64,000 nucleotides of DNA from Takakia lepidozioides (Eukaryota > Plantae > Bryophyta), in the NCBI GenBank assembly GCA_030704615.1, contig CM060731.1, positions 67,642,001 through 67,706,000 of the forward strand, given 5' to 3'. Below the pieces are notes generated by a model. That model was not told where the DNA came from, did no database searches, and saw only the letters and a program-made list of their open reading frames with translations. Of this stretch, positions 4,321-36,272 are shown one piece after another; position 1 is the first letter of the stretch; each line of letters opens with the position of its first letter. The translations under genes and the position numbers were made by a program.

Positions 4321-4338
4321 AAGCCGTGTCCTCACGGT

Positions 4339-5340: not shown

Positions 5341-5352
5341 AGCCCGACTGTA

Positions 5353-7941: not shown

Positions 7942-7944
7942 CGA

Positions 7945-13780: not shown

Positions 13781-13781
13781 A

Positions 13782-14945
13782 TTATCCCATCCACGAACAA
13801 TAACTGACTCCCTTTACGCAGGCGCCAGTTTCCTGATACAACTCACAAGAATAGTTGCCTACCTTGCAAGTCCTGGCGACCACCGCTTCCACCAAGCGAC
13901 TGATGGTATCTTCCGACAGCTCCGTGGTTGCCCAGTCATGTTCAATTGTCGAGGTTTTGTGCACTTCTTGGCCATGTGCCCGGCTCCCGCAATTGAAACA
14001 CACTCCATCAAAGGTCGCCTTCTGTCCGCCATAAGCCGCTCCACCCGCTTTTCCTTTCGAAGCACCAGGTGCCGCCTTGACGTGTGAAGGCCCTCCCTTC
14101 GATTTCCACGTGCCATTGTCGCCGCGTGGCCTATCCCACTTCTTTTCCGGTCGGAAGGAGTCACCTTCCCGCCGGGTCTTCTTGTGGTTCAGCTCCGTAC
14201 GGCCTTGTCTCTCACCCCTAGGGACATCCGAGAAACATTCAGCCCTCTCAATTGCCTCGTTCAAAGTCTTGGGTGGCTTCTCCTCCAACTTCCGCCTGGC
14301 CCATGGGGTCAGTCCCGCCACAAAGTTGAAGACCATTTCTGGTTCTGCCATGTCCGCGACTTCGAGCAACAGCACATTGAAAGCCTGGACATACCCCCGA
14401 ATGTCATCTGTTTGCTTCAAATTCCTCATCTTGTCCCGGGCAAGCCAGGACGCGTTGAGAGGCACAAACTGTCTCTTCATCAACTCCTTGAACCCACTCC
14501 AGTTCAAGGTTTCCGGGCTTGGACCTCGGTCGTGAAGGCGTTTCTGCCACCATTGTTGAGCATAGCCCCTCAAATAGGTGGGAGCCACTTCCACCCGATC
14601 CTCGTCACTCAACTTGGCCGCCCGGAAGTACTGCTCTAGCTCCAAGAGCCAGGTGTTGAGTGCCTTCTGATTTCGGACGCCCTCGAAGGTGCCGGGTTCC
14701 TTAGGCTTCACCTTAAACTTTGCCTTAGCGGAAGTGGCATTAGCCGCCTTCAACACGTCTTTCAACGTCCCGCCAAACTGCGCCAACAACCCTTCCCAAA
14801 AAGCTGCCGGCATGGGAGGCATCTGTTGGTCTGTCGAAGCTCTCAGGGATTCCTCGGGCTCCGACTCCTCGGATTCCTCCCGCTCTTGAGTGGCCTCGTT
14901 TTCAGAAACCTGAGTCGCTTCCTCAAACGGCCGCTTCGGTGACAC
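13782..14945 (-). CDS. Chromovirus gag (frameshift at the zinc knuckle)
   Basis: Retrotrans_gag-like KPKEPGTFEG..WLLELEQYF..AQQWW; CFNCG knuckle. Confidence 0.85.
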   Translation of the reverse strand: MSPKRPFEEATQVSENEATQEREESEESEPEESLRASTDQQMPPMPAAFWEGLLAQFGGTLKDVLKAANATSAKAKFKVKPKEPGTFEGVRNQKALNTWLLELEQYFRAAKLSDEDRVEVAPTYLRGYAQQWWQKRLHDRGPSPETLNWSGFKELMKRQFVPLNASWLARDKMRNLKQTDDIRGYVQAFNVLLLEVADMAEPEMVFNFVAGLTPWARRKLEEKPPKTLNEAIERAECFSDVPRGERQGRTELNHKKTRREGDSFRPEKKWDRPRGDNGTWKSKGGPSHVKAAPGASKGKAGGAAYGGQKATFDGVCFNCGSRAHGQEVHKTSTIEHDWATTELSEDTISRLVEAVVARTCKVGNYSCELYQETGACVKGVSYCSWMG

Positions 14946-15060
14946 GTCGCCCCCATCGGCTCACCAGGATCATCATCTTTTGGGCCATTCCGCTTTCGCT
15001 TTGGCTTGCCCGACCCCATGATGAGGCCAATCCCAAGGACAATCGCGTACTGAACTCTAA

Positions 15061-15072
15061 GCTCTGATACCA
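15061..15072 (-). promoter_or_regulatory. Primer-binding site for tRNA-iMet
   Basis: TGGTATCAGAGC 2 nt inside the 5' LTR end; identical site at 34448-34459. Confidence 0.92.
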
Positions 15073-15808
15073 AGTGTCGCGCACCTCACTTCGGTAAGCT
15101 CCCCCTCAAGTCATAGTTACTCGCTTTGATGCGCGCGCCTGACTCCCAACCTGGCCGCCGGGCCAACTTGGAGCTTCGGCTGCTCACCAGGGCATAACGG
15201 TCCCCCTTTGTTCTCCCAAAGAACCCTCCACCGATTTGGAACCAGCGGAATTCCCTTTGGTAGTTGGCAGTCCGGAACAGCTCCCCACTCTTTGGTCGCT
15301 TTCCGGCTCGCTCGCTTACTCACTAGTTTTTGGTCACCAACGGGCTTGCACCGTTCTCGGGGTTACTACTCCCTATATATACTTCTGTAGCTGTCCGTGG
15401 GGGTTCCACAACCAGCCATGCCATTTTATGGCGAACCACCACGAAAACCCTCGACTCCCGGTGATGAGTCGCGGTGAGTCTTGGCCCACTCACCACGGCC
15501 CCTATGGACCGTGATGAGTCCCAAGACTCCCCACGACTCCCACCACGAGGTCTCCGCCCCCATGGTGAGTCCTATGCCACCCCCACTAAGTCCCGCTAAG
15601 CTACCACCACCCCTTGTGGAGCCACCCCCACCGCAACCCGGTGTGCGGGGCTCCACCTAGTGAGCGCCTCCGCTTCCCTGAGTGCCTTGGGCACTCAAGG
15701 GTGCTTCAGCCCCCCATACCTATCGCTGCCGCCGCCCGCTGCCCCCACCACAGGGGCAGCCCCTCATGTGTCCCGACCCCCCTGCTCTCAAGGCAAAGGG
15801 CCGCGACA

Positions 15809-18800
15809 GGAACCTTGCTGTGGACTTGGCTGTGTTGTCCCTCAAAGCTTTAGCTTCCACCCACTTCGTAGTATAATCAGTGGCTGTAATTATGTACCTG
15901 TTTTGTGTATTCTTGGCTGGTGGCTTAATTGGTCCAACAAAGTCTAGTCCCCATTTCTGAAATGGTTCCGTAGGCATTGTAGGATGCAAAGCCATCTTCC
16001 CAGATCTTTGCAGAGGTTCTAGCCTCTGACATTCATCACAACTCTGACAATACTTGTGTACATCTTTGAACAAAGTAGGCCACCAGTAACCTGCATGTAG
16101 TATCTTCCTACTGGTAGTCTCTTCTCCAAATGACCTCCTGCCACTCCTTTATGAACTTCCTCCAAAACTTTTATTAACTTCATGGTGGTATAAGCATCGC
16201 TTCAGCACTCCATCTGGTCCTAGCTTATACATTCTGCTCCCTACCATAGTGTAGGTAGAGCCTTGATAGCAATTCTCTTTCTCTGCTCCTTTCCATAACT
16301 TGGTGGGCACTGACCATGATCAAGGTAGTATCTGATTGGCCACTACCAATCTAACCAGTCATCTGCACTTCCCTGCACCTCCACTGCAAAGACTCGCATC
16401 TGGTAATTGATCATCTACTCCCGTGGCTGGTTCTCCTGTTGATAACCGTGACAAGTGATCCGCCACAAGATGCAGCCTCCCAGGCTTGTAAACAACCTCG
16501 AACTCAAACTCGTGCAAGATTATCAACCATCTTGCTATTCTTCCGCTTATCAGAGGTTTGTTTACCAGGTATATCAGAGCCCGGTGATCCACATAGAACA
16601 TAAACTTCTTGCCCAACAGGTAATGCCTGAATTTCTTCACTGCATAGATCATTGCCAATGCTTTCCTTTCCGTTGTGCTATAATTCTTTCTGCATTGTTC
16701 ATCATCGGCTAGCATAGTACACAGGTGAATCTATCCTTCCTGTAACATTTTGGGCTAATACTGCTCTAGTGCTTCTCCAGAAGCATCACAGTGAACATGA
16801 AATATTTCCTTCCTGCCAGTGAGGATTAATCAGCACAGGTGTAGTTGTTACTGACAATGTAAGTTCCTCAAAAGCCTGTTGACATTCAAGTGTCCATGCA
16901 AACACTGCATCTTTCTTCAGAAATTTGCTCAATGGTGCTGCTATCTGTGCATACCGTCTGACAAATCTTCTGTAATAACTGGTTTGCCCAAGGAATCTCC
17001 TTAGACTCTTAACATTCACTGGTGGTGGAGAGGCTTTAATGGCCTCTGTTTTCCTGGGATCCACAAGAAGTCCCCTCTTACACACAATGTGTCCCAGAAG
17101 CACCCCTGAGTTCACACAGAAAGTATACTTCTCTGGATTCAGGCCCAGACCTCTCATCCTGCATCTGGCCAGACATAACTCCAATTTATGCAAGTGCTCA
17201 TTCTTAGAGCTGTACACACTGAAATCATCCAAGAACACCTGCATGAAATCATCCAGATACTCATGAAAAGATTCACTTATCACTCTCTGAAAGGTTGCTG
17301 GTGCATTACAAAGTCCAAAGGGCATGACTTTGTATGCATAAGCACCCCAGTCTGTGATGAAAGCTGTCTTTCCTTGGTCTTCTTCTGCCACTTGCACTTG
17401 ATTATAACCACTGAAGCCATCCATGAATGAGTACATCTCATGGCCTGCCACAGTGTCCAATACTGCTTCTGTGAATGGCAAAGGGAAAGGATCTTTCTTC
17501 GTTACAAGCATTCAACTTCTTGTAGTTCACACAAACTCTTAGTTTACCATTCTTCTTGGGAACTATCACAATGGGTGACAACCAAGTTGTATACTCTATT
17601 GGGTATATAAACTTAGCCTCAGCCAACTTCTTGATCTCTTCTCCAACCTTCTGTGCATAGTTGGGATTCATTCTGTACCTTGCCTGCTTGATTGGTACTG
17701 ATCCTGGTTCCAGTTCAATCTTATGCTGACAGATCTCAGGTGGTATCCCTTTTAGATCCTCGTAGCTCCAAGCAAACACATCTCTGTATTTGATGAACAA
17801 ACTCTTAGCTTCTTCAAAGAATTCTGGCTCCAAATCAGCTCCTACCTTCACCATCCTTGGTTCCTCTTTAGTTCCCACATTCACTTCCCTCACCTGCTCA
17901 TCAGCTGTGATTGTCCAACCAGTCACCACTTCATCCTGTAAACTCACAGTGGCTGGTTCCTCTAGGATTTCCATTTCTCCTTCTCTTTCTTCATAGAAAT
18001 GTGATGGGTAACTGCTGGTTTCCTCTTCAATTGGTGTTGCTGACACTACACCACAGCAGATACCTCTTAAACAACTTAGGCCTTCCAGCCGCATCTCTGC
18101 AACCTGCTCCCACTCTGGGTGTGCAGCAAACAGGGTAGCTTCCTGCTCCTCATCCAGTCCTCCTCTCCAGTCATACTCTCTGACCCCTCGAGGTCTTCTC
18201 GTAGCAGGTAATCTACTAGATTTCTTTGTGGTAATTTGTATCTCGTGCATCCCATTATGCACGGTTAGTAACTGAGAATTCCAGTCATGGAATACCCTGG
18301 CCTGTTTCAGCCACGGACGTCCCAATAATAAGGAGTAAGCCTCCATGACTTCATCCATCTTCAACACAGTTACTGTGATCATAAAGATCATCTTCTGTAT
18401 CTGTATCTGTATCTTAACTCCTCTTATCAATCCCAATGGCTGTACACTCCTTTGATCTGCCATTGTTACTGTAAATGGGCTGGTTTCATGTTACTTAGAC
18501 CAAGCTTCTTTTAATTGGTCTGTCATGAATATTTACTCCAGAGCCTCCATCTATCAGTACATCAGTTAGTTCTGTGCTTCCAATTCTCAATTGGATTACT
18601 GGCATAGAATCATCAAAGTCCATGACTGTTTCTCGCCCTTCCGGCTTCACATTATAACTGGTCACCTTGCTGTTCAGGTCTGTGTTTCCTGTCTCCTGGG
18701 CAATTCGATTGATTGCTTGATACAGCCTGTGTCTACAATAAGGTGCCACAGCCAATAGCTGTCCAATGGTAATCTCTGCTTTGGTCTGGCATATTACTTC

Positions 18801-19151
18801 AGCCAAAGTCCCTTCATTACTTTGCATGTCTGCAGCTTCTTTCTTCCTTTCATCCTCACTCACTTCTTCTTCTCCATCAGAATCAGAGGAATCTGCCACA
18901 GGAATATCAGTACTCTTCTGCATTTCCCTTATGGTATCTGCCACTTCCTTGTGCAGTTCCTTCTCATCTCTCCAAGCCTCATCATCTTCAGGCATATCAC
19001 TGCCATCTTCATTATCATCATCTTCCTCAACTACTGGAGGTATTAGTTTGGCTTTGCTTCTTGTTACTATCATTGTACTTACTTCTGGTACAACACATGG
19101 CCTAACCATGTGAGCTGCCACCACTGGGCCCTCATTCACAGGAGCTCTCAT
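15809..19151 (-). pseudogene. pol (PR-RT-RNaseH-INT N-terminus) of the Athila/Tat-like element, frameshifted
   Basis: [49 protein letters not shown] motifs. Confidence 0.9.
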
Positions 19152-21026
19152 CTCATTCTGGTGTCTAATCCAGAATGAACAGGCTGCCTTGCGATGTCTG
19201 ACTGATTACAATAGTAACACAGTTCTTCACCATTGGGTCCTCGCCCTTGGTCTGCTCTTGGATTATTTCTGTAATCTTGATTCCCTGGCTGGTAATTCCC
19301 CCTTGGATTACCCTGATAGTTGCCTCTGGAATTTCCTTGGTAATTCCCTCTTGAATTACCTCTCCCTTCCATGCCATTGTTATAACCACCAGGCCTACCA
19401 TAGTGGTCCTGATCATTGTTTCTTCTTGGCTGGGGCTGCACTTGATGCACCCTTACTTGCCTAGGTTCTCTTGCAGCTGTCCTTCTGTTGTAGTAACAAT
19501 TCTCAGTAGAATGGTTATCCATTTTACAGATAGTACAGTGTTTCTCCTTCATGTGGCATTCAGTGGTGGTATGGCCTTCATTCTGGCACTTTGCACACCA
19601 AACACCCTTCCTCCAATGTGTTGCAGCCTCTGTGGCATACTTCTTCAAGATTTCTTCTAATCTTTTCTCATAGTTATCCCTCTTCAACTTCTCCTTTCTC
19701 TTACTCTTCCTTTTTAGTTCTTGCTCTTCTTCTTCATCTGACTCATCCTCAGAGTCCTCATCATCCATTTTCTCTCTCCTGAGCATTCCCAATTGCTCAA
19801 TTCTGTTTGCAGTTTCAAATGCCTCCTCCACTGTATTATGGGGTAACATATCCACTTTCTTCTGCAACTCTGGTCTTAGTCCACTCACAAACCAAGTCTT
19901 CTGTAAACCTGGTGCTGGTACAGCAGCCAGCTTTTTCATCATCAATTCCATCTTTTCCATATACTCCTCAACAGTTTCATGCTTTTTTTGCTTTAACTGT
20001 TGTAAACTTCCATACACTTCATCCTCAGTTTTACTTGTCCTGAACCTATTTCGGAATGCTGTATTCAAGCCATTCCAGGTTAGGAAATGATTATCAGGGA
20101 ATCTTGCATACCATTCACTTGCTTTCTTGATAAGTGAACAAGGAAACAATCTCATCTTGGCATCATCGCCATTCTCATTGTTCACTATACACATGTGCTC
20201 AAATTGGCTAATGTGTACATCGGGATCCCCTTTTCCTGAATATATTGGAAAGGGTGGTTTTGCCCGTGTTGGTTGTAACGCCATCTGTGGCCCTACCTTC
20301 TGCCCACTGACAGGTGCTGGCACCCTTGCTGGTGCTGGTCCTTCAGGACCTGTTGTTGTTGTGGTGGATCTTCCACCAAGTGGTGGCCCTTGAGCACTCC
20401 TTGTTACTGGCCCCACGATATTCACAGTATTCCCAGCTCCAGTTGCACTACTTCCCACACTCCCTGTCCCCCCAGAGCCAGATCCAGGCAGCCCGCCTGA
20501 TCCCCATGAGCCGACACCTTCGTTGGCCTGTGATCCAAGTGCTCCACTTGATCCAGGTCCAACGGGTTGGGATGTCCTGGTTGTAGTCTCGGTCTACTTC
20601 TTCATACTCTTCCTCTTCCAATTTCTTCTTCTTCTCTCATTTTCATCCTCCAAGTTCTGCCCTTGGGTTTCTTCTTCACTCATGTAACTCAACTGTAATG
20701 GTGTTGGAGAGTCTGAACTCTCCGTTGGCTCTGCCACATCCTCTCCTCCTTCTTCACCTTCCGCTTCAAAAACTGGAGTTCCTGCTTTTGGTGTTCCATG
20801 CCAACTCTTTATCAAAGATTTCTGTCAAATCTTTTATCCAGGGATGTACCTCAGATCTTTCACCTCGTGATTGATCTTCTTCCCGTACCAATTCCCTTAA
20901 TCTTTCTTGCAAAGAAAAAGAAGGAGTGGCATCCAACTCTAGTTCTTCCGGTATGGGTGATGTACTCTCTGATCTTATGGTGTGAGAGGTCCAGATGATT
21001 CCCCTATGTCTATTCCTCTCTCCCAA
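19148..21026 (-). pseudogene. gag of the Athila/Tat-like element (tandem CCHC knuckles, GN-rich repeat), frameshifted
   Basis: YSGKGDPDVHISQFE..LFPCSL..ASEWY; CAKCQNEGHTTTEC and CTICKMDNHSTENC. Confidence 0.85.
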
Positions 21027-21127
21027 AGATATGGATAATTAGCTTTCAGATAGCTTTCTCTTTTTGTTGAATATCTCTGGCGTCTAGCTTCTCTTTCATC
21101 ACTCATGTCCCATGTCTTTCATTTCTT

Positions 21128-21808
21128 TTAATGTGGCAATAACCAAAACTCTCTTCTGTAATATCTCTCGTATATGCCTGGGTTTCTTTCAAGCTTCAAT
21201 GCACCCTTGGCTATACTAGAAGTCTCCGTTACCATATAACCATATGGCAAACAAGTCTGGAAAGCTGTTCTTGGTGTGAGTTTGATCCACAAAATATCCT
21301 TTGGAATCCAATTCTTTACCAGTACAAGCTCTTCATGCATATGAGTATAAACATTCACCTTTCTTTCCTCCCAGCCTTCAAACTCTACTCGCTTAATGGA
21401 TAGCAATGCTATCACATAAACCAGTGTTGTTCCTCTACAGGCCACCTGATAAATCTTTATCACTCCTTTCTCCAGACCCCACTCAGGGTCAGCATCATGC
21501 ACTCTCTTAAGAATGTTTTCTTTACAACCGTCTGGCAATTCCAAGAACCTCTGAAAGAATCGTTTGGACAATCTTTCCTTCTCAGTTTCACAGGGAATTT
21601 GATTCACATCAAATTCTTTAATTCTCCATCCACCATGATCCCACCAGATGCCTGTAACATCTGGTTGTTCATGACCCAGTTCCCCTGTATGGTCGCCAAA
21701 TGTCGCGCGGCTTTTACTCACCCATCCCTTCGCTATCCGAGGCGGGAACTCCAAGATAGAAGAGTTGGAAATCTCTAAGCACTCAGCCCGCTCAGAACAA
21801 TCAGTCAT
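21128..21808 (-). CDS. Upstream ORF (226 aa) starting inside the 5' LTR and crossing the PBS; unknown function
   Basis: Open frame with its ATG in the LTR; no recognised motif. Confidence 0.4.
   Translation of the reverse strand: MTDCSERAECLEISNSSILEFPPRIAKGWVSKSRATFGDHTGELGHEQPDVTGIWWDHGGWRIKEFDVNQIPCETEKERLSKRFFQRFLELPDGCKENILKRVHDADPEWGLEKGVIKIYQVACRGTTLVYVIALLSIKRVEFEGWEERKVNVYTHMHEELVLVKNWIPKDILWIKLTPRTAFQTCLPYGYMVTETSSIAKGALKLERNPGIYERYYRREFWLLPH
21680..21700 (-). promoter_or_regulatory. Primer-binding site (TGGCGACCA..., possibly tRNA-Arg)
   Basis: TTTGGCGACCATACAGGGGAA directly inside the 5' LTR; tRNA identity is inferred. Confidence 0.7.
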
Positions 21809-22708
21809 GACCTACAGCTAGTGTATCATGGGGGTGTTTCCTTTTTGTTTTCCTTCCCGCATTCATGTTAGCTAGTTACCTTACTGTTGGTATTTAAGTA
21901 TCACTTTGCTTCAGCAATCTATCGGATTCCATCAACTCATCCATTCATTCCACAGCTTCACTCAGATCTCTCTACACAGTGTGAGTATGAAGTATGTATT
22001 AGATTAATATCTATCAAGTATCGGGCTGAAGCCATGGTATCTCTATTCTGCTCTACATTACAACTCTACTTCTTGCATTCAGCAAGTATCAACAGATCGT
22101 TCTCCTCCTACTCCGTGCTCTCCCTTTTTCTGCTCAGAGATGCGCTCTCCGCTTCATTTCCAAGTTTTGATTTCCCCCCGAAGTCCTTCCAGAAGTGCTC
22201 CCAGAAGTCATTCTCCCCCAAGAAGTGATGATTTCCAGTCCTCGCTCTTGGCTTTATCTTCCTACCCGTTGTTCTAACCGTTTCCCTCACTAACCGTCAT
22301 CCGTGAACTAACATGTTCCATTCGCAGATGTTGTTCCCCACAGTCGTTCCCTGTCCTGCTATCCGTTCCCTATGGTCGTGACAGCTGTGTCAAGCTGTGA
22401 CTGGCTGTGTGAAACTGTGACGGGCTGTGACTGGCTATGCGACTGTGTTGGGCTGTGTCGGGCTGTGTCGAGCTGTGACTGGCTGTGCGACTGTGTCGGG
22501 CTGTGACGGGCTGTGTCGAGCTGTGATTGGCTGTGGCGGCTGTGTCGGCTGTGTCGGACTGTGACGGACTGTGACGGGCTGTGTAACCCCCCCCCCTAAA
22601 GTGCGCTGCTGTCACCCCTAAGGCTCCTGTTGGTCTCATTCTGTGCAAAAATTAAGGGTACCCCACAGATCCCGTAAAAGTGCCTAAGTCCCAGACAGTC
22701 CTCTAACA
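21701..22708 (-). repeat. 5' LTR of the Athila/Tat-like element
   Basis: Matches 3370-4300; longer GCTGTG array (about 22380-22585) and a 20-bp insertion. Confidence 0.95.
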
Positions 22709-22813
22709 CCTAGTAGTCTAAGCCATAAGCCGCAACAGGTTCTCTACCTGGTTATCTTGTGGAAAGGGGGATTAGAGACAGGTTTATAATAGGTGTGGTT
22801 GTGAGTTTTCATC

Positions 22814-25080
22814 ATGGAGGTGCCACCAGTTGCTGAGGAGAGTGCCGGTACGAGCACCAGCGATACTAGTGGGTATACAAGACAAGGTGTGCGGTTTAAG
22901 CCACCTTCACCTTCAGTGTCTTTTGAGGAAGGTTCAGACTCAGAGTTAGGAGGATTCTCGCCAAGGGTGCAAGCCATTTTCATGCCATTGTTGTGGGATA
23001 CGATGGAGGAAATGTATGGAGCTACCAAGGGGCCACGTCGGTACTCTGGAGCTGTGGGCACCATTGAGCTTGATGGGATCTTGGACAAGGAGTTGAGGAG
23101 AAGGGTGCGGGATGCAACTCTCCTACAAGTGGACCAACCCACCTTAGCAGATGTGTTTTTGCTGGCAGAGCGGATAGAGCTCAATATGGTGGAGGAGCGA
23201 GTGGTCATGGTGGGGTTTGGTCAGGAGACACAATGAAATGGGGCTCCTAGCCAACAACAACCACTACCCCAACGTGCTCAAGGCAACAAGGGGGCTCAGG
23301 CGAAGCCCAGGGAAGGGCCGAGAGGATCTCAATTGCAGAGGTCACTTCCTTCATTCTTAGGCCAACAACAGTCGGGTGTGACATGTTGGGATTGTGGAGG
23401 ACCCTATGTTAAGAGAGATTGCCCGGAAAGAGGCAAAGGGTCGGCACCGGCACAGCCTACACAACTACAATGTGAGCATTGTGGCAAGTATGGGCATGAA
23501 GAGGCCCATTGTTATGCATCCTGAGCTACGGCCAGGCCAGTTCCAAGGGAACAATGGTGGCCGAGGACGAGGCAATGTAGTCCAGAGAGGAGGTAGAGGT
23601 TGGGGTGGAGGACGTAACCAAAACCAAGGAGCACAGGGTCAGGGTCAAGGTCATGACCAAGGCATGATGGATAGACTTGCCCAGCTAGAGCAACGTCTTG
23701 CTGCCACGGCCACTACTCATGTTGTGTCAGCTCCAAGGCTTGAGGTTCAAGCCCCACCTGCACAACCTCATATGCCTAGGGAAGACCAGATTGGTATTGG
23801 CTTCATGTGTGGAGCCGCACTTGCAGGACCATTGCATGTGGACTATGCAGCTGCTGTCACTCGAACAGCAACGCGTGCTCCTGAGCCAAGAGGAGCGGAT
23901 GTGGATTTTGATCCACAAAGAGGGGAAGCAAGTCGGCAGACAAGGCTTCCACAGTCTTTCACATTGGCTGAGACAATGCCAACTATGCCATCTTGGCACC
24001 CCCTCGCCCAAGTGTGTCAGAAGTAGAGCCACGAGTGTCATTGGGGAGAGTTGGTATGGCTCGGGAAATGCCAGTGGGTGGTGCTGCAAAGCAAAGTGCA
24101 GCCAATACATTGTTGGGGGCGGCTACGGCAATTTGTCAAGCTCCAATGTTTTCTGCCATGACAATTGCAATGTCGGGGATGCGGCCAGCCGCAGTGTTTA
24201 GACTGGCAGCTAGACTCTGTGAGAATGGTGATGCATCGGCACTATCTGCGGGAATAGCGGATCAGTGCATGGATGCCCTGGATTCAAGGGTGAAGACAAC
24301 CACAGCTGCGCCATGGCAAGGAGCAGCTGCAAGGTTGCAAGAGTTGCGAGCTAGACCAGCCGTTGAGCGTAGTATAGTGACTCTTGGGGTAGTCCTGGTG
24401 AACAATCAGGATGGTGTGTTTCAGTTGGGTGGCCTGGCCGGGAGGAGGTATAGGTCACTGCGGGTCTTGTTGGACTCGGGAGCACAGCCATTGATGTTCG
24501 GGAGAGCAGCAATTGCAGGCTTGGGTCTTACATAGGCGGATTTGGAGCCTTGCCCTTTCCAAATTTAAACAAATTTGGGCGGTTCAGAGAAGGCACGAGG
24601 GATTACACGCCATGAGCTCTTCATTCGATTGCAGCCAGATCATCCTATAGATGGCTCTGTCATGAGAGCTAAAGCCATTGTTACGGACGCGATGTCTTAT
24701 GATGTGCTTGTTGGTGGGGCTGTGTTATACCCGATGGGCTATACGTTGGACTTTTGGGAGGAAACGGCATTCTACAGGCCAGAATGGCAGTCAGGGGATG
24801 GTCGACGTGCACTGCTCCCAGTGCGGTTTATTGGGAATGTAGCGGTGGATCATAGGAACATGATGCCCACATTGGCTACATTCTCAGGGGTGGTGGCTTG
24901 GGGTGGTGAGCTCTTGGAGGGCAATAGCCATGCAGATGATAGGCCACCACCTGATGAGGACAAACAATTGGCATACAAGGCTGATTTGCTTCCTCATGTA
25001 TCTGTTCATATTCCACTGTGGGGTACAGTTAGGAATTTGCATCGAGTAGCATGCGAGTATGTGCACCAAGCATGGCAGGG
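22814..25080 (+). pseudogene. gag (two CCHC-type knuckles) and aspartic protease of the outer element
   Basis: CWDCGGPYVKRDC, CEHCGKYGHEEAHC, RGG-rich tract, VLLDSGAQP and YDVLVGG motifs; stops and deletions. Confidence 0.85.
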
Positions 25081-25700
25081 CATGATGCACGATCGCATTT
25101 GTTTTGGGAGATGTTGAGAGTATTGCGTGACTTGCAGACGAGGTAAGTGCAACCTCTAGCCTATATCTTGGAGAATGTTCCTCTTATGGGGGACTCTCGG
25201 GCCAAGGTTATGGCCAGTGTGCATCAGGTGCGGTCTTGGATTGGATCGGCGGTGCTATTGGATGCAGCAGCGGTGGGATCACGAGCGCATTGACCTCGAT
25301 TGTGGTGGACCAATCTTGCACCACCAGAGCTGCTCAAGAGAGCATACGATTCCATTCAACGGCCACCGAATCTCACAGTTGAGGGCATTTTGGACCAAGG
25401 GAGGCAACCACAGAGGGTGCGACATGATGACCGTCCACCTCTAGTGGGGCAACCACGTGCGGCCTTGCCTACGCTCATGAGTTTTCCCTCGTCTCATGCT
25501 TTTCGAGACAATGGTCCTCGGTTGATTTGGGACAGTGTGCTACAGCAATTGGTGGAGCCCAATGCAGATGAATGAGAGCAGGCAATGGGATTTGCCACGG
25601 GCACTACAACTATGCCATCTCTGTCAGAGGCATCACGCCGACATGTGTTGGGTCAAGCAATTGATCTAAATTGCTTGACATAGGTCATTGGTTTGTGCAT
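25081..25700 (+). pseudogene. DNMT3-like C5-cytosine methyltransferase domain (motifs V-X) inside the retroelement pol
   Basis: Frame +1 read through stops: HDARSHLFWEMLRVL..AYILENVP..LLDAAAVGSRAH*PRLWWTNL..EPNADE*EQAMGFATGTT..SEASRRHVLGQAIDLN. Confidence 0.88.
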
Positions 25701-25954
25701 GGCTAAACAACGGAGGTTGCAGACAGTGGTGGCTACTTCTGCACTCCCATTTGGTATTGTATCCCCTCTGCCAACCGGGACGGTTGAGGCAGCGAGTGGG
25801 GCGAGCACATGATCATGGGGTGCAAACACCCATGGCAGATGTGGGATGAGATGCGGAAAAAAAGAGTCATTGGATCTCTCAAGCAGCAATATGAGGAGTA
25901 GGAAGAGCCATACATTGAGGATCAGTTGGAGGCCAAGGTAACCAATGTTTTTTA

Positions 25955-27915
25955 AGAGAGTTCGTAGTGGCATATGCTAGCCGCTCAAACAATGATGCCG
26001 AGACGAAGTATAGTTCCTATGAAGGGGAGTGTCTAGCTGCGGTATGGGCAGTGGCACATTTCAGATGCTACCTCTATGGCACCATTGTCACGGATCACCA
26101 ACCATTGAAGTGGTTGATGGAGTAAGACAAGCTTACAAGGAAGCTTGTACGGTGGGCACTTATGCTTCAAGAATACGACTTTCAGGTGGTGCATCGAGCC
26201 GGTATTGTCAATCGGGATACAGATGGATTGAGTCGTAATCCATGCACAAGCGAGCTTGATGATACTGGAGCTCGGTGGCATGGTGAGACGGATGAGGAGA
26301 TGGTGCCAGGATGGCATGCATCTGCCTTTTTGTGCATCCTAGCAATGGGAGCTCAAGCTGGTCCATCCCATAGCATTGGTCATGTAGATGGTGTGCATGA
26401 CAATCCGGAGATCAGTGAGGAGCTTGGTGGTGCTAAGGATGTGCATGAAGATGCAGCAGTGTTGGCCTACCTTCGTACTAGAGAGACAGCAGCCAGTGTA
26501 ACTGCTAAGGAGAGAGATTAGATCCTACAACAAGCCAAGAGGTTCAAGTGGGAGGGGACTCACCTACTCTGAGTATGGGAGGATGGACGAGTGAGGATTG
26601 TGCCTCATCCAACACAACGAGGCGATTGGTACGCCATGCCCATGAGAAGTTGGGACATTTTGGGGTGCGGCGCACTCATAGTTTGCTGCAAGGACAGTAC
26701 TGGTGGCAGGGCATGCACACGGATGTGCAACAGTTAGTGGCAAGGTGCATGGTGTGTGATAGAGTGCGAGCTTCTTTCAATGCACCTACTCCACAATTGC
26801 ATCATTTACCCATTATGGGTTTGGGCTATCGTTGGCGTCTTGACTTCGCAGGCCCATTGCCACTAACGATTCGCCATAACAAGTATGTGCTGGTGATGGT
26901 GGAACATTTCTCTAAGTGGATTGAAGTGGTGGCATTGCCTGACAAAGCAAGTGAGGGAGCTGCGTATGCATTCTTAGATCGAGTGCTTAGCCGATTTGGT
27001 GCTCCAGCCGAGGTACTCACGGACCAGGGAAGAAAGTTCTTTGGGGAGTTTCAGGCTTTGTGTGAGCAAGCCTTGATAGATCACCGCACTACTTCTCGGG
27101 ATCATCCCGAGGCTGATGGCCTGGCAGAGAGGGTTGTACAAACAATCAAGTGAGGCTTGCGCAAGTATGGCTTGCAGAAGGGACACTTAGGAGATTGGGA
27201 CCTTCAGCTACCTTGGTTGGCCATGGGCTACAGGTTTAGCAAACAAACATCACTTGCCTCGTTCTCACCTTATTTCCTTATCTTTGGCCGAGAGCCAGAT
27301 TTGCCTGCATCTATTCGCAGGGAGACTGCAGTAGTTCTCAACCTTGATGATCCGGATATGTGGACACAAACATGTGCCCAGCGGGCAGAGTTGTTCAAGA
27401 GATTGCCTATGGCTTTTGAGAACCTTGCTATTGCCCAACACCGAGACACATTGAGGTACGCCACTATACGTGGAGGGGGATATCGGCCAAGTGTTCGGCG
27501 TTTCCACCTTGGGGACTATGTGTATCTGCATCAGACAACGCCTACGACTTTGGATGTCATAGCAGGGCGTGTGATTCTAAGGGTCCGGGAGGTGTTGCCT
27601 TCAAGAGTGTTGATTCTGGAGGGTCGAGATGGCATGGTATGGAAGGACCATGTACGCAATTGTGCGCCATGTCACCTTCCACATGTGGATGGGAGGATAG
27701 ATCCCAACCTTGCAGTGGTACCTGCAGGGTTGCGTTGCATGCTATGTGGGCATGCTAGTGGTGCCGCGACCATGTTGGTGTGTGACAAATGCTCAAGGGG
27801 GTGGCACATAGGATGCTTGACACCGCCACTTGAGAAGGTTCCTAGTGTGAATGGTTGTGTCCATGATGCCTTGGACATAGGTAGTGGGCATGACAATGGT
27901 GGAATTGACAAGTGA
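25955..27915 (+). pseudogene. RNase H (C-terminal half), integrase and PHD finger of the outer element
   Basis: VAYASRSNNDAETKYSSYEGECLAAVW, TDHQPLKW, HEKLGHFG..CMVC, LDFAGP..LTDQG..DGLAERVV, CMLC..CDKCSRGWHIGCLTPPL..WLCP*C. Confidence 0.9.
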
Positions 27916-28139
27916 TCCAAGGTCTAGCTGATGGGAGCTCAACGCCATGGATACTTAATTGAAGATCATGGATTGCAGGAAGGCGAGTAACGATGGGGCT
28001 ACTTTTGCACCCGGCCTCTTGATCTATTGACTTTAGATACTGGGACATGTGCGATTGAAGACCAAGCGATGATTTTATTGAGATGGATACTTGTCAGCTA
28101 TCCGGTGTTAGAGGGACCTAATCATCTGCTATAGGGGCG

Positions 28140-28226
28140 ATTGTGGCATAGCTTTCTAGGATTGTATGCTTAGAATGTATGGTGGATAGCGATGTATGTT
28201 GTGGCACGATGCTTAGGTGCACGACA
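28140..28226 (+). repeat. Block B1 (copy B2 at 35215-35301 is the right terminus)
   Basis: 87-bp direct repeat with 4 mismatches, ending GCACGACA; followed by GT and then A2. Confidence 0.9.
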
Positions 28227-28575
28227 GTTGTCATGGTTTTAATCATGGTTAACTAGAATTACCTACTTCTAGTTAACTAGGACATTTTGGATATTTATAT
28301 TTGTATTTTGTGTGTTGGGACTTCATTTGGTCTCACATGCCAAGTGAGGTGTCAAACCTCACTTGGGACATGGGGATGGTTTTCCCCTTGTGAGTGTTGA
28401 GGAGGGCTCATCTTCTTGTAGTTGAGCCTCCATAAGCCTCTCCCACCTCCATAGCTCTAGGTTTTGAGAGGGAGTGTGGTGAGGGCTTTGTAGGGTGGAT
28501 TCCCTTAGCAAAGGTGCCCTTGGCTTGACTTAGTTTATGTGATTGAGTGGATTCATGAGTGGAGTGTTTCCATTG

Positions 28576-31500
28576 TGTCGCGCACCTCACTTCGGTAAGC
28601 TCCCCTTCAAGTCATAGTTACTCGCTTTGATGCGCGCGCCTGACTCCCAACCTGGCCGCCCGGGCCAACTTGGAGCTTCGGCTGCTCACCGGGACATAAC
28701 GGTCCCCCCCTTTGCTTCCCTCTAAACCCTCCACCTAATTGAGACTAGGCGAATTCCCTTTGGTAGATGGCAGTCCGGAACAGCTCCCCACTCTTTGTCG
28801 CTTTCCGGCTCGCTCGCTTACTCACTAGTTTTTGGTCACCAACGGGCTTGCACGTTCTCTCGGGGTTACTACTCCCTATATATACTTTTGTAGCTGTCCG
28901 CGGGGGTTCCACAACCAGCCATGCCATTTTATGGCGAACCACCACGAAAACCCTCGACTCCCGGTGATGAGTCGCGGTGAGTCTTGGCCCGCTCACCACG
29001 GCCCCTCTGGACCGTGATGAGTCCCAAAACTCCCCACGACTCCCACCACGAGGTCTCCGCCCCCATGGTGAGTCCTATGCCACCCCCACTAAGTCCCGCT
29101 AAGCTACCACCACCCCTTGTGGAGCCACCCCCACCGCAACCCGGTGTGCGGGGCTTCCACCTAGTGAGCGCCTCCGCTTCCCTGAGTGCCTTGGCACTCA
29201 AGGGTGCTTCAGCCCCCCATACCTATCGCGTCCGCTGCCCCCACCACAGGGGCAGCCCCTCATGTGTCCCGACCCCCTGCCTCAAGGCAAAGGGCCGCGA
29301 CACACACCCCTACCACAGGGAGTCGATGTCCTCATCAACTTGTCCATTTTGTAGAAACGAACATCCCAAATGTGGCGTCCCACATCAGGAGTTTGTTTCC
29401 GCACCATGGCGTCCCATGGCAAAGAACCAAACCCCACACTTGACTCTACTCTCCACTAGCTAGTTCGGCCGACTTCCTCCAAGTCCCGGCCAAGGGTGGA
29501 GCCTCTCCAGCTCCTCCCAGTGCACTCTTCTTGGCCTACTTCAAGGCCAAGGAACGATCCCCCCGAGGATCGAATCGCCTTACTGCAACAACATTGCTTG
29601 CGATCGCTCATGATGCCGCTTTTGGCATCACCTTGAGCAAGGGTTCACCTGGACCCTCTTTGACTAGGAAGATAACCTTGCCAACCGTGCGCCCCAATCA
29701 CTAACTTGGGTCCGCCTTGGAATTCTGGCCCTGGGTACGGGAACACGCCGAAGCCGCACTACGACTTCGTCCCGAGGCTACACGATTACAGTACGTGAAC
29801 GGAAGCACGTAGCTTTCCATCCGCGTTATCCCGCACTACAAGGCAACCCCTCGGTAGCGCAGTTATAGTACGCCACGCGCCAGGTGCGCACTAGCACGTG
29901 AACTCCCAAGAAGTCGCAAGTTTCCTTTGCCCCTTGGATGGGGGTCACCCATTCGGCACTACGCAAACACCCACGATTAACCCAATTTACCTCTCCCATT
30001 TTTTATAAGCTAGCATGCATTCTACACACTAGCCACCATACCATGCATCACCATTCCAAACAAAATAGGCCGCACAACATTTGGAAACCCATTTCCTTTA
30101 TAACAAATTTTTGTACAATACAAGTTTTTTGTAATCGGATTCCTAAGCTAGCTAAGCCGGGCTAAGCATTCTTTTCCTCCCCACGCTCAAGGTTTGATGT
30201 CCCCATCAACGTTTCCTTTCTCGCTTTTGAGGTCGCCCTTCGAAGCTGCAACCGCCTCGGATGCGTTTCCCATTTCTGAGGCACGCACCCAAGATGCCTC
30301 CACATGATGATAAGCCTTCTATTTGACGAGATACTTCGTTTCTCGGTTTCTGAACCTCCTCGACTTAAGTATTGCCTCCACCCTCGTACTCAGGTTCATG
30401 TTCATGATCCAACAGCATAGGTGGCGGACGCAACACTTGATGTCGATTCGTACGCGCTTCATCTTTGAAGTAAGGCTTCAAAAGGGAGACCTGGAATACT
30501 GGGTGCACCTTGCTGTTTGCCGGCAGCTCCACTTATTCATACACATCCTCATTCATAACCTTTCGAATGCGAAAGGGTCCCCGCATACGGAGGTACGAAC
30601 TTCGGACTCACTTCGGAGGTAGTCGGAAATTCTTGAGTTCTAACCAGACCTCTGTGCCTGCCTCAAACTTCACTTCCCCTATCCGCTTTTTTTTTCCGAT
30701 TCACCCTGCCGTTCCATAACCTTTTTCCTAGCTACCGTTTCCTAGCTTTGGCATGTTGTACTTTGCGAGCTTCAACAAACGCTCGCGTTCTTCAGTCCCG
30801 CCGCTACTGCCGGTTCCCTCAACGTCCTGGGCGGCCCAACTTTGTCGCACCAGAGGTGCTTTTCCATAGACCAATACGAAAGGGAAACTCCTGTTGCGGA
30901 GTGTTCTGTGTTATTATAACAGAACTCTGCCGCGTCTAAGTGTTCCATCCAGTCTGATTGGTATGCCGACACGTAATTCCGCAAGAATTGCTTCACTACG
31001 GAATTCACTCTTTCCGTTTGGCCGTCCGTCGTAGGTCGGAAGGCGGTGCTCATCTTCAGCCTCGTCCCCATCTTCTTCCAAAGTGTCCTCCAAAATTTAC
31101 TCGTAACTTTGGATCACGATCCGAGACAATATCCTTCGGGACTCCATGATGCTTTAAGACGTGGGCGAAGTAAAGTCGCCCTGTCTCCTGCGCCGTTTGC
31201 CGTCTCCTTGGTGGGGATGAAATGGCCCTTTTACTGAACCTATCTCACCACCACCATGATTGCATCGAATCCTTTTGACACAGCGGCATAGCTGTCATGA
31301 AATCCATCGAGACCTTTCCCAAGTCCCCTCTGGAATCGGCAAGGTTGTAACAGCCCCGCTTGCTTTTTGTGTACTCTCTCCGGTTTTGTTGGCATGTGGT
31401 GCATGTCTTGACATACTCCCTCTCCTCCTCCTCCCTCAGTTTGGGCCAGAAATACTCTTTCTTCAAGAGTGCCGCAGTGCGCTTGGCTCCGCCGTGGCCC

Positions 31501-34500
31501 CAAGCGGGCTATCATGGCATTCTCTCAAGAGGCTATCCCTGATCCCTCCCTTCGGCACGTAGAGACGTTTTTTGCTTATACCGGAGCAGTCCATTTTGCA
31601 AGTGGAACTGCGATTTAACCCCCGTCCTCAAGTCCTGCATCACGGATTTTGCCATCTCATCCTTCCGGCAAGCCTTCCGGATCTTCCTTTGGAGCGTCGT
31701 CTCGCCCTTGTACACCAACAAGAGCTGCTGCTTTCTACTTAAAGCATCGGCCACCACATTGTCCCGTCCCAGTTTGTACTGGATATCCGCGTCGAACACT
31801 GCCAAAGTATCTTGCCACCTAAGTTGTTTTGGGGACAACTTGGGCTGCGTGGCAAAATACTTCACCGTGACATTGTCCGTGAACACCTTCACTGGTTGGA
31901 ACCAACATAGTGGCGCAGAGCTCAAGGCAATGCACCACCGCCTTCATCTCTTTTTCGTGCGTCGGCCATCGTCGCTCCACTTCATCAGTTTCTTACTTTC
32001 GTAAGCCACCGGACGTCCATCTTGCATAAGTAAACACCCCAATCGCGAAGTCCGATGCATCTGTATGAATCTCAAACGGACGATCGAACCCCGGGATTTT
32101 CAAGACTGGAGCTTTCGTCATCCGCTGCTTCAATTCAGCAAAAGCTGGCCACAAAATGTGTTCCATACCCAGACTTTGGATTTACACAGAAGGTCCGACA
32201 GCGGCCCCGCGATCTTGGCGAAATTTTCTCACATACTTTCGGTAATAGGAGGCGAGTCCTAGGAAGGATCGCACTCCCGGGACCGAAGTCGGAGGCTCCC
32301 AGTCCAAGATCGCCCTCCACCTTTCTGTCATCCATTTTGATCCCATCCTGTGTAATCACGTGCCCCAGGAACTTCACTTTTGTGACCCCGAATTCGCACT
32401 TTGAAGCTTTGGCATACAGCTTCCCTTCCCGTAATTTTTGGAACACCCTTTTGAGGTGCTCCAGGTGCTCCTCCTTTGTTTTCGAGTACACCAAGATGTC
32501 GTCGATGTACACGATCACAAGTCATCCACCACTCCTGGAAAGGCTGTTCATCACGTGCTAAATGTCGCTGGTGCATTGGTGAGCCCAAAGAGTCATCACC
32601 AAGAACTCATATGAACCATACCTTGTCCTGCACGCGGTCTTCTCCTCATCTCCTTCCGCCACCCGAATTTGGTGATAGCCGGAACGCAAGTCGATCCGGC
32701 TAAAATACTTCGCTCCTGCCACCGATCGAAGAGGTCGTCGATCCTTGGCAAAGGGTACGGTTTTTTTATAGTCACCTTATTCAGAGCCCTGTAATCGACA
32801 CACATCCGCAGCGTCCCATCCTTCTTGTCTGCAAATAGCACCGGGGCTCCGTAAGGTGACTTACTCGGCCGATGTACCCCCTTTGACATTAGATCCTTGA
32901 GCTGAGTCTTTAGCTCGACCAACTCTCTGTGGCTCAACCGGTAGGGCGCCTTGGCAGGCGGTTCCGATCCCGGTATCACCTCAATCTTGTGGTCAACTCC
33001 TCTTCGCGGTGGCAAGCCGCTTGTTAAATCCTCCGGCATCACATCCTGGTATTTCTCCAAAATCCCCTTGATCCAATCTGGGCTCTCGCTCCCCATCGCC
33101 TTCTCCTTTCACTTCTCTAATGTAAAGCAAAAACTGGGGCCGTGTGCCTCCTCCACGGCCCACTCCTTTGCTGACAGAAGGTTTATTCGCCCTCCCACGG
33201 ATTGGGCGTTTCTGACACTCGTAAAATCTCGCCACCATTCCCACATGGCAGCGTGACTACTCTCTTGCGGCCATCTATGACCGCTCCGGATTTGCTCAAA
33301 AGGTCATCCCCAAAATGAGATCCACTCCATCGATCTCGCAGATGGTGAAGTTCTCACGTCCCTCCCAACTCCCCAGTTGAAGGGGAACATCAATCGCCAA
33401 CCTTGTCGCCAACTGTGGTTCTCCTTTGGCAGAACGTACCTCAATAGAGGCCCCCACGTCACTTGTCGGGAGTCCCAGCTTTTGTGCCGTTGCCGGTGTC
33501 ATGAAGGAGTGCGACGCTCCTGTGTCCACCAACAACGACACCTTAGTTCCGGATATTATCCCATCCACGAACAATAACTGACTCCCTTTTCGTAAGGCGC
33601 CAGTTTCCTGATACAACTCACAAGAAAAATTGCCTACCTTGCAAGTCCTGGCGACCACCGCTTCCACCAAGCGACTGATGGTATCTTCCGACAGCTCCGT
33701 GGTCGCCCGAGTCATGTTCAATTGCCGGGGCTTCGTGCACTTCTTGGCCATGTCAACAGCACATTGAAAGCCTGGACATACCCCCGAATGTCATCTGTTT
33801 GCTTCAAATTCCTCATCTTGTCCCGGGCAAGCCAGGACGCGTTGAGGGGCACAAACTGTCTCTTCATCAATTTCTTGAACCCACTCCAGTTCAAGGTTTC
33901 CGGACTTGGACCTCGGTCGTGAAGGCGTTTCTGCCACCATTGTTGAGCATAGCCCCTCAAATAGATGGGAGCCACTTCCACCCGATCCTCGTCACTCAAC
34001 TTGGCCGCCCGGAAGTACTGCTCTAGCTCCAGGAGCCAGGTGTTGAGTGCCTTCCGATTTTGGACGCCCTCGAAGGTGCCGGGTTCCTTAGGCTTCACCT
34101 TAAACTTTGCCTTAGTGGAAGTGGCATTAGCCGCCTTCAACACGTCTTTTAACGTCCCGCCAAACTGCGCCAACAACCCTTCCCAAAAGGCAGCCGGCAT
34201 GGGAGGCATCTCTTGGTTTGTCGGAGCTCTCAAGGATCCTCGGGCTCCGACTCCTCGGATTCCTCCCGCTCTTGAGCGGTCTCGTTTTCGGAAACATGCA
34301 TCGCTTCCTCAAACGGCCGCCTCGGTGACACGTCGCTCCCATCGGGCTCACCGAGATCATCATCTTTTGGGCCATTCCGCTTTCGCTTCGGCTTGCCTGA
34401 CCCCATGATGAGGCCAATCCCAAGGACGATCGCGTACTGAACTCTAAGCTCTGATACCAAGTGTCGCACACCTCACTTCGGTAAGCTCCCCTTCAAGTCA

Positions 34501-35190
34501 TAATTACTCGCTTTGATGCGCGCGCCTGACTCCCAACCTGGCCGCCCGAGCCAACTTGGAGCTTCGGCTGCTCACCGGGACATAACGGTCCCCCCCCTTC
34601 GCTTCCCTCTAAACCCTCCACCTAATTGAGACTAGGAGAATTCCCTTTGGTAGATGGCAGTCCGGAACAGCTCCCCACTCTTTGGTCGCTTTCCGGATCG
34701 CTCGCTTACTCACTAGTTTTTGGTCACCAACGGGCTTGCACCGTTCTCGGGGTTACTACTCCCTATATATACTTTTGTAGCTGTCCGCGGGGGTTCCACA
34801 ACCAGCCATGCCATTTTATGGCGAACCACCACGAAAACCCTCGACTCCCGGTGATGAGTCGCGGTGAGTCTTGGCCCGCTCACCACGGCCCCTATGGACC
34901 GTGATGAGTCCCAAAACTCCCCACGACTCCCACCACGAGGTCTCCGCCCCATGGTGAGTCCTATGCCACCCCCACTAAGTCCCGCTAAGCTACCACCACC
35001 CCTTGTGGAGCCACCCCCACCGCAACCCGGTGTGCGGGGCTTCCACCTAGTGAGCGCCTCCGCTTCCCTGAGTGCCTTGGGCACTCAAGGGTGCTTCAGC
35101 CCCCCATACCTATCGCTGCCGCTGCCCCCACCACAGGGGCAGCCCCTCATGTGTCCCGACCCCCTGCCCTCAAGGCAAAGGGCCGCGACA
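28576..35190 (-). mobile_element. Chromovirus Ty3/Gypsy LTR retrotransposon, copy 2 (same family as 9002-15808)
   Basis: LTRs 28576-29302 and 34462-35190, TSD CATTG, iMet PBS, chromodomain (YEVEAILKS..YLVK..GY..EASW) at about 30170-30400; gag deletion; many frameshifts. Confidence 0.93.
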
Positions 35191-35301
35191 CATTGTGTGT
35201 TCACTTCCATTATCATTGTGGCATAGCTTTCTAGGATTGTGTGCTTAGAATGTATGGTGGACAACGATGTATGTTGCGGCACGATGCTTAGGTGCACGAC
35301 A

Positions 35302-35581
35302 CCTTCCAACGAGGTCCCCCACGAGTGCCTGTACCCAACACTTCACACGCATAGCGGTTCGACTCTCTACAGATCCGCTCGAGTATAGATTGCCTCCAAA
35401 ACAGGTGAAAGAACCAAATAGGACTGGAACCCTTCATGCCCGGGAGGCAGGGACCTGGTTCGGGGGCACTGAAAGCATCTATGTCGCTTACAAAATCGAT
35501 GCCCACTTTTTTTTCCCATTTACAAGGCTTGAACATGTTCTTAAACTCCAGGTCAGGTTCATCAGCACCATCACACTCCAT
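35302..35581 (-). pseudogene. piggyBac-like transposase N-terminal part (continuation of 1-670)
   Basis: SPIWFFHLFWRQSILERICRESNRYA..GGPRWK; removing 671-35301 plus one CCTT gives an in-frame join GGPRWK-ELIVPELRVWIG. Confidence 0.8.
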
Positions 35582-36272
35582 GTCAAGATTCTCCGTATCC
35601 CAATATCCCAGTAATCTCAGTATCCAGTAATCTCAGTATAAGTGGCTCTTAGTTACGCCGGTTTCTGCCGGAGTCTTCTCTCTATTCACGCTTTGCCATC
35701 GTGGCAAATCAATTTCTGATTTCTGACTCGACCCAAAAACGTGTCGCTTCGTCCATTAATGTGTCACGTCGATGCGTCATGTGTCGCGTTCCATCTTATG
35801 GACCAAGCATAGTTAGTATCCCATGTCTCATTTGATTAAATTGAACTAACTAGACTGATGATGTCCCGAAAAAAAATAAAAATAAAAGAAAAACTGGATG
35901 ATAAATACAATCATCAACCCTATCTGTAACCCCATGATCCTGACATCGTGTCTCTCTCAGGCTATGCTTTGACACAAGACGTAAACACGAAACATACCAA
36001 GAGTGATAGTGGGCAGTTTCAGGCCAAGAGGGCATTGGATTCCCTCACTGATCGTAGTGAGCATTTGTGGAAGACTGAGGTGTGCATAGCAATGGGCTTA
36101 TGCGGCTGTCGAAAATTTCAAGAGTTTCAGTGTTGTATCATCATTTGGATATATCCCTAAACGTGGAGTGCCGATCTCTCCTTTACTGCGCTCCATGTTC
36201 ATTTGTTTCCAGATGAGAGCGGATCGGGTCAGTGTCAGAAGAAATTGAGAACTATTTCCAGTTTCCTCAAGC

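Follow-up and report, generated by a model that had tools for sequence, protein, structure and literature searches.

We report that a 64,000-nucleotide stretch of the genome of Takakia lepidozioides (GenBank assembly GCA_030704615.1, contig CM060731.1, positions 67,642,001 to 67,706,000 of the forward strand; hereafter the window, with positions counted from its first letter) almost certainly contains a decayed member of a family of Ty3/Gypsy retrotransposons that carry a cytosine DNA methyltransferase (DNMT) domain inside pol. The whole element lies on the plus strand at 671-35301, has TG...CA ends, is bracketed by an identical target site duplication (TSD; CCTT at 667-670 and 35302-35305) and has been invaded by three nested long terminal repeat (LTR) elements. 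By its sequence, it belongs, with a land plant as host, to the same kind as KnitGypsy-Dnmt3, known from the alga Klebsormidium nitens (de Mendoza et al. 2018, PMC5890265; here and below, published work is cited from the accessible parts of each text).

The DNMT3-like C-terminal half, 25081-25720, was identified by translation, Pfam, PDB, relatives and mapping. The translation was a frame +1 read-through of 25042-25740, stops included. As the initial annotation had proposed for 25081-25700, this frame yields motifs V to X across four stops (25144, 25291, 25573 and 25681), and we reproduced both the reading and the positions: LFWE at 25099-25110, ENV at 25171-25179, GSRAH at 25276-25290, RLWWTNL at 25297-25317, EQAMGF at 25576-25593 and VLGQA at 25645-25659. 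Scanned alone against Pfam DNA_methylase, for which the cut-off is 22 bits, the segment stayed below threshold (13.8 bits, E 0.038), while 19 of the 30 relatives scanned scored above it; the domain is thus recognized by Pfam in the family and not in the window segment by itself. The best PDB match of the segment was DNMT3A (E 0.0013), in an alignment covering motifs V-VIII and IX-X. With the read-through as query, 40 longer related proteins were found among 2156 candidates, the best at 67% identity and E 7e-87, and, judged by sequence through these relatives, the similarity of the segment to DNMTs is far beyond chance. A profile of the family matched DNMT3A at E 5e-23 (DNMT3A/B/C ranking first), DRM at 6e-12 and HhaI at 1.5e-8. 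Moreover, a 60-row model of the domain from L041, a locus of the metagenome scan described below, reached a predicted local distance difference test score (pLDDT) of 94.9 and had DNMT3A/B/C as best folds (E 1e-19); the fold search used this model only, the 8-row model (pLDDT 42.7) being unusable. In total, the top PDB match, the family profile and the model fold all favour the proposed DNMT3-like identity.

Around this segment, the remains of gag and pol are preserved on the plus strand, and the sequence on both sides of the DNMT is collinear with a single Marchantia protein, P0003. A frameshifted gag remnant with two zinc knuckles (23384 and 23471) lies at 22814-23990; in tblastn it matches P0003 residues 1-29 and then 200-348, residues 30-199 (about 170 residues, the capsid region) being deleted near 23080. 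An aspartic protease at 24383-24805 (DSG at 24473, two stops) is collinear with P0003 residues 521-840 at 45% identity and corresponds to Asp_protease_2 in the relatives. At a deletion junction at 25076-25081, P0003 residue 840 falls at 25075 and residue 987 at 25081, so that about 146 residues, including DNMT motifs I and IV, are lost. The reading frame changes at the start of the DNMT segment, the family profile aligns to the window over its positions 192-423 of 528 only, the N-terminal half of the DNMT being gone, and a six-frame search of the window copy found neither motif I nor motif IV. A third deletion region, 25840-25955, marks the loss of the entire reverse transcriptase (RT) and of the beginning of RNase H; the relatives P0009 and P0020 as well as L041 gave no RT match between the DNMT and RNase H. 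These are followed by the C-terminal part of RNase H (25955-26230; Pfam RT_RNaseH, E 1e-21), a DDE integrase with an H2C2 zinc finger (26623-27300; Integrase_H2C2, E 4e-15; rve, E 4e-13) and, at the integrase C terminus, a PHD finger that has lost its last zinc ligands (27736-27849; Pfam PHD, E 6e-5). The PDB matches of the latter are the PHD fingers of DPF3, ATXR5, UHRF1 and KDM5 (E 1e-8 to 4e-7), and it also resembles the BAZ2A finger. Because the RT is deleted, the DNMT directly precedes RNase H in the window, unlike in the intact family; the earlier placement of the domain between protease and RNase H therefore describes the window, whereas in the intact family it lies between protease and RT. 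The window copy is dead: motifs I and IV (and hence the catalytic Cys) are deleted, as are the RT and the larger part of gag.

The segment is common to a family. Names were available for 19 of the 40 related proteins, namely 16 from Marchantia polymorpha, one from Calypogeia fissa and two from Sphagnum; these bryophyte relatives are 48-71% identical to the window, with one gappy model at 32%. Their order in Marchantia, Calypogeia and Sphagnum is gag-protease-DNMT-RT-RNase H-integrase-PHD. In P0009 and P0020 the DNMT is followed by the RT and then RNase H, and protease, DNMT, RT and RNase H share a single frame in P0009, P0280 and L041. A scan of metagenomes yielded 90 confirmed loci of which 80 were retained; all 80 repeat the same order as far as each extends, and in L041 a single frame, interrupted by two internal stops, takes in everything from gag through integrase. 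The integrase-PHD region had no match in viral contigs.

Contigs from the host species itself aligned over 22700-28600 (16067 and 31153 of them) and covered 30/30 bins, including the DNMT. Where the window copy has its gag and DNMT deletions, the contigs break off with loose ends, and they also cover the parts missing from the window, namely the N-terminal half of the DNMT and the RT of L041. One 2173-nt contig spans the DNMT flank, RT and RNase H. The host genome thus holds many diverged copies of the DNMT-Gypsy, the summed contig depth not being a copy number. Altogether, the 40 relatives, the 80 loci and the host copies bear out that the segment belongs to the family and is no one-off. In a comparison of the window with the host copies over the same interval (run X1), the window has A for G at 117 positions and T for C at 89, with 42 and 40 in the reverse directions; such an excess is as expected from the decay of methylated DNA.

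The element has no ordinary LTR pair; its ends are the repeats A and B rather than two full identical terminal LTRs, and its layout is A1...purine tract-B1-GT-A2-B2, all on the plus strand. A1 (671-1276) consists of two pieces, 671-739 and 1110-1276, which are 98.6% and 96.4% identical to A2 and have unrelated DNA between them. The intervening 740-1109 and the following 1277-3369 are probably further repeats within or behind A1, and do not match any leader among the related loci. A G-rich polypurine-tract-like motif (28130-28139) lies right before B1 and recurs ahead of B1 in 6/6 related loci inspected; we infer from its sequence that it may be the plus-strand primer. B1 (28140-28226) ends with CA and is 95.4% identical to B2. 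Repeat mapping further defined a two-base spacer, GT (28227-28228), between this CA and the TG with which A2 (28229-28575) starts, an interruption of the end of A2 by a nested element, and B2 (35215-35301) as the 3' end of the element. No TGG, as for a tRNA primer site, directly follows A1 in the four loci inspected, and the window contains no tRNA gene; a self-priming hairpin after A1 was considered and rejected (z-scores -0.89 to 1.33 in 5/5 sequences).

Among the 20 long loci, split repeats are full in L045, L062 and L064 and partial in L004, L015, L032 and L069. Scanning all 80 loci gave 18 with B and eight with both ends, and the latter comprise three long forms, one deleted long form and four short A...B forms. 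The spacer between CA and TG has two bases in 6/6 junctions matched among the 80 loci, as well as in L032. The A2-B2 joint is exact in five loci, while L045 has about 17 extra bases (10837-10857) and the window about 20 or more; such variation would be in keeping with end-joining of a circle. L028 (13368-13482, short) and L069 (7604-8171, long) appear to represent one insertion site with and without the A2-B2 part. Integration of a one-LTR circle was considered for the short forms and rejected: that 4/8 two-ended loci are short forms with an intact TSD is no proof, and L028 and L069 share one 3' flank, so that B-B recombination or assembly collapse can yield the short form. The order protease-RT-RNase H-integrase, the DDE integrase and a 4-bp TSD in the window and in 8/8 two-ended loci place the family in Ty3/Gypsy. 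The rve and H2C2 integrase and the TSDs set it apart from DIRS, Ngaro and PAT elements, which have a tyrosine recombinase in place of a DDE integrase and mostly lack a TSD; moreover, no tyrosine recombinase match was found in the three forward frames of 22501-28500.

For the range of the family, a profile was searched against representatives at 50% identity and the best 150 rows were taken. Of these, 11 have the domain order of the window, 94, the chlorophyte type, have RNase H-DNMT-integrase and 45 are too short for the order to be read. Names were found for 11 of 30 representatives looked up: Closterium (seven), Klebsormidium nitens, Calypogeia, Scenedesmus and Cymbomonas (one each); Haematococcus, a relative of the chlorophyte type, came from a separate protein search. 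Motif IV is often Glu-Cys in the chlorophyte-type group (e.g. P0056, P0229 and P0253, and the named Haematococcus, Scenedesmus and Cymbomonas proteins). Klebsormidium GAQ93235.1 and the Closterium proteins have the order knuckle-protease-DNMT, and the K. nitens protein is 36% identical to the Marchantia DNMT domain. The suggested link to the Klebsormidium elements is thus borne out by both the domain order and the repeat layout. No vascular plant appears among the named relatives (19/40 proteins, 24 matches and 11/30 representatives), which is no evidence of absence.

A DNMT tree was built from 38 domains without a cellular DNMT3 outgroup, starting from a 37-row quick tree from which 12 rows were removed (a single long branch, all others for redundancy) and to which 13 were added. 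The window groups with Marchantia, Calypogeia and Sphagnum (98/97), and the chlorophyte-type rows form one clade (100/99). K. nitens is a long branch placed weakly among the streptophyte-type rows in this tree, which lacks a cellular outgroup. The bryophyte part is discordant with the hosts, Sphagnum being nested with the liverworts (99/96), and because the tree does not follow the bryophyte hosts, paralogues or transfers are likely. In an RT tree, for which the bootstrap had not settled, the chlorophyte-type rows grouped at 94/89 and the streptophyte-type rows did not form one clade. Over integrase and PHD, the window is 49% identical to a chlorophyte-type protein across 413 aa, compared with 21-33% for the other elements in the window; this identity is the sole support for a single origin of both architectures. 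The family suggests an origin much older than a capture confined to one lineage, as put forward in 2018.

In 60/60 aligned rows, neither the catalytic Cys nor the ENV Glu varies, and the motif VIII arginines are at least 90% conserved. The S-adenosylmethionine-binding motif I is retained in the relatives (pattern found in 67/80 loci, and that of motif IV in 54/80), bryophyte members have Pro-Cys at motif IV, and the relatives have the unpermuted motif order I-IV-VI-VIII-X and no introns. Between the window and five loci, nonsynonymous divergence (dN) of the DNMT is 0.24-0.33, with synonymous divergence (dS) from 2.8 to saturated; in the same comparison, dN is 0.39-0.42 for the protease and 0.09-0.17 for RNase H and integrase. 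Between lineages, the DNMT dN of 0.24-0.33 goes with a dS of 1.1 to saturated. By this sequence measure, purifying selection acts on the DNMT domain between lineages.

What is observed, then, is the domain order, conserved catalytic residues in relatives, purifying selection, split repeats with 4-bp TSDs and a range that takes in mosses, liverworts, Closterium and Klebsormidium. Arguing by analogy, we consider it fairly probable that the methyltransferase of intact members methylates the element's own new complementary DNA (cDNA); with the catalytic half deleted in the window copy, this idea would apply only to intact relatives. The DNMT would be made as part of pol and packed into the particle together with the RT. 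There it would methylate the cDNA, CG first, as the analogy with DNMT3A and SymbioDIRS-Dnmt3 suggests, so that a new copy would arrive pre-marked and resemble host heterochromatin. The PHD fingers of UHRF1, DPF3, KDM5 and BAZ2A read the unmodified H3 tail, as does the ADD domain of DNMT3A; the PHD finger of the integrase may steer insertion to chromatin unmethylated at H3K4. The position of B immediately behind the purine tract would make B-A the LTR produced by reverse transcription. The inserted form may be a two-LTR circle that is opened by the integrase at CA-NN-TG inside one LTR, and a staggered cut there would leave two-base overhangs, which are what integrases use. The most far-reaching version of this reading, which we regard as possible but doubtful in its full extent, is that of an ancient green-plant Gypsy clade. 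This clade would have captured a DNMT3 before the split of chlorophytes and streptophytes and afterwards changed its place in pol, the order being protease-DNMT-RT in streptophytes and RNase H-DNMT-integrase in chlorophytes. In land plants it would persist as an active, self-methylating element with a PHD reader of the unmodified H3 tail, following a reader-plus-writer logic as in animal DNMT3A, and would integrate from a two-LTR circle cut at the internal CA-NN-TG and not from linear cDNA ends.

Several points weigh against an active, self-methylating element. The window copy, missing motifs I and IV, is incapable of activity, and every locus inspected holds stops or frameshifts. In 64 of the best 150 cluster representatives, the Pro of motif IV is replaced by Glu. 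Among close copies, the ratio of nonsynonymous to synonymous differences (pN/pS) of the DNMT halves is 0.28-0.96, like that of decaying copies. CG depletion was rejected as a footprint of self-methylation, observed/expected values being 0.48 in the window and 0.27 in L041 as against 0.18 and 0.89 in DNMT-free neighbours. In yeast, no methylation was seen with the Klebsormidium domain, a result that the authors of that work call inconclusive (PMC5890265). Finally, the enzyme activity, its substrate, the PHD ligand and the circle are inferred parts of the mechanism. On the other side, de novo methylation of CG in yeast was shown for SymbioDIRS-Dnmt3 of Symbiodinium, and the 2018 authors argue for cDNA methylation by a pol-borne DNMT in DIRS elements (both PMC5890265).

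It is unlikely, although the PHD finger points to chromatin substrates and an antiviral role of transposon methylases has been proposed (PMC6338049), that the enzyme is active after integration or in trans, on the surroundings of the insertion, competing elements or incoming viral DNA instead of its own cDNA: in both architectures the DNMT lies beside the RT in pol, which would bring enzyme and cDNA together in one particle. Less probable still is that the domain serves mainly as a DNA- or 5-methylcytosine-binding module or as a decoy, tethering the integration complex or tying up the host methylation machinery. Catalytically inactive paralogues of the DNMT3L type exist, and both the Glu replacement at motif IV and the inactivity of the Klebsormidium domain in yeast would fit such a role; however, the invariant catalytic Cys and ENV Glu, the retained motif I and the Pro-Cys of the bryophyte members argue for an enzyme. 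That the window copy captured a fragment of a host DNMT3 on its own, or is a chance join of two elements, as the half domain and the frame change at its start might suggest, can be dismissed given the 40 relatives, the collinearity of both sides with one Marchantia protein, the lack of introns, the 80 loci and many host copies that share the segment, and the one TSD that brackets the whole element. We therefore retain methylation of the element's own cDNA by intact members as the preferred reading.

The family bears on why transposons carry an enzyme that silences them, the known carriers living in algae with few genetic tools. The presence of the family in Marchantia polymorpha, for which methylation mutants exist (10.1101/363937), makes the target of the enzyme testable. 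Public proteomes list copies of the family as host genes, and such entries can push up the number of DNMTs counted. Moreover, with the split repeats and their constant spacer of two bases, the DDE integrase seems to follow a route of integration that is still unexplained.

The three nested LTR elements are each bracketed by their own 5-bp duplication. An unrelated Gypsy element on the minus strand (3370-22708; LTRs 3370-4300 and 21701-22708; TSD CCTAG; Pfam matches to gag and RT) sits in the leader of the DNMT element. Within this outer Gypsy lies a second LTR element (9002-15808; TSD GGAAC), and a third of the same family as the second (28576-35190, minus strand; LTRs 97.7% identical; TSD CATTG) interrupts A2. 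The outer Gypsy has frames of 337, 863 and 355 aa after the integrase (4339-9012, minus strand), whose only Pfam match is a weak one to rve at the start. It also contains a 10-bp tandem array (7957-8176), with a similar array in its LTRs, and, upstream of its gag, a 227-aa frame without a Pfam match (21128-21811, minus strand). The two copies of the inner family differ by an inversion of about 180 bp (10595-10772 versus 30343-30531).

Beyond the element, a host gene for a PILS (auxin carrier-like) protein lies on the plus strand at 36249-38621 (Pfam Mem_trans, E 8e-37), and fragments of a broken pentatricopeptide repeat (PPR) gene in inverted arrangement lie at 39481-42365. Of the flanking genes that had been named, PILS and the PPR fragments were thus found, but the diterpene synthase (diTPS) was absent from the 40 frames scanned in 39000-64000 (39 from the 74 listed open reading frames of at least 75 aa, and one read-through of another). 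Among named matches of the last PILS exon, Sphagnum reached 76%, Ceratodon 75% and Physcomitrium 72-74%, followed by a lycophyte at 68-71% and by liverworts and seed plants at no more than 64%. A PILS tree of 26 rows places this single gene within the clade of mosses (100/99), apart from both Sphagnum and the Ceratodon/Physcomitrium group. The host, which had been supposed to be an embryophyte, is by this one gene sequence most likely a moss outside these groups.

Literature searches gave only the description from the alga, in agreement with the supposition that this cargo had not been described from land plants; no report of a land-plant DNMT-Gypsy came up in these searches, which reached neither subscription journals, theses and Repbase nor figures and the supplements of preprints. 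The accessible texts of PMC6317226, PMC6453930, 10.1101/363937, PMC11982613, PMC10952607, PMC9940879, 10.1101/2021.11.30.470311 and PMC6673714 contain no mention of one. According to a 2019 review, land plants such as tracheophytes have no transposons that encode a methylase (PMC6338049); the bryophyte family contradicts this for land plants, although the sentence stresses tracheophytes, where we found none either. Two later texts refer to streptophytes and cite the 2018 paper (PMC12344493 and bioRxiv 10.64898/2026.05.21.726589); the latter, with the wording 'streptophytes (Gypsy-DNMT3)', describes no land-plant Gypsy-DNMT3 in its accessible part.

Among known systems, Phygy/Selgy (Neumann et al. 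2019, PMC6317226) are likewise non-chromovirus Gypsy elements of seed-free plants, and Phygy has a 4-base target motif; however, compared by description, no PHD finger or methyltransferase is mentioned in the text available, and 0/9 TSDs of the present family fit the NCGN that Phygy prefers. EpiLTRs and DAM-LTRs (10.64898/2026.05.21.726589) are LTR elements carrying DNA methyltransferases; the EpiLTR enzyme differs in being DNMT4-related and in lying at the 3' end of pol with a chromodomain and DAM. Gypsy-7a_cRei of Chlamydomonas (PMC9940879) shares a Gypsy pol with a PHD finger in the green lineage but, compared by description, has no DNMT listed in the accessible text and an ordinary LTR pair apart from 8 bp. 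SymbioDIRS-Dnmt3 (PMC5890265) resembles the present family in its DNMT3-like domain beside the RT in pol and in the coexistence of two domain orders; it has a tyrosine recombinase instead of a DDE integrase and a dinoflagellate host, the DNMT domains being set side by side by description. REM1 is reportedly another PHD-bearing Gypsy of Chlamydomonas. The closest system is KnitGypsy-Dnmt3, which combines DIRS-like split repeats (A1-ORFs-B1-A2-B2, ORFs being open reading frames) with Gypsy domains (PMC5890265) and shares with the present family an intronless, unpermuted DNMT3-like domain in a Gypsy pol as well as purifying selection. The available text of that paper does not mention an integrase PHD finger, and it interprets the element as an acquisition of the K. 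nitens lineage, whereas the relatives found here span Closterium, bryophytes and chlorophytes, and the host is a land plant with many copies.
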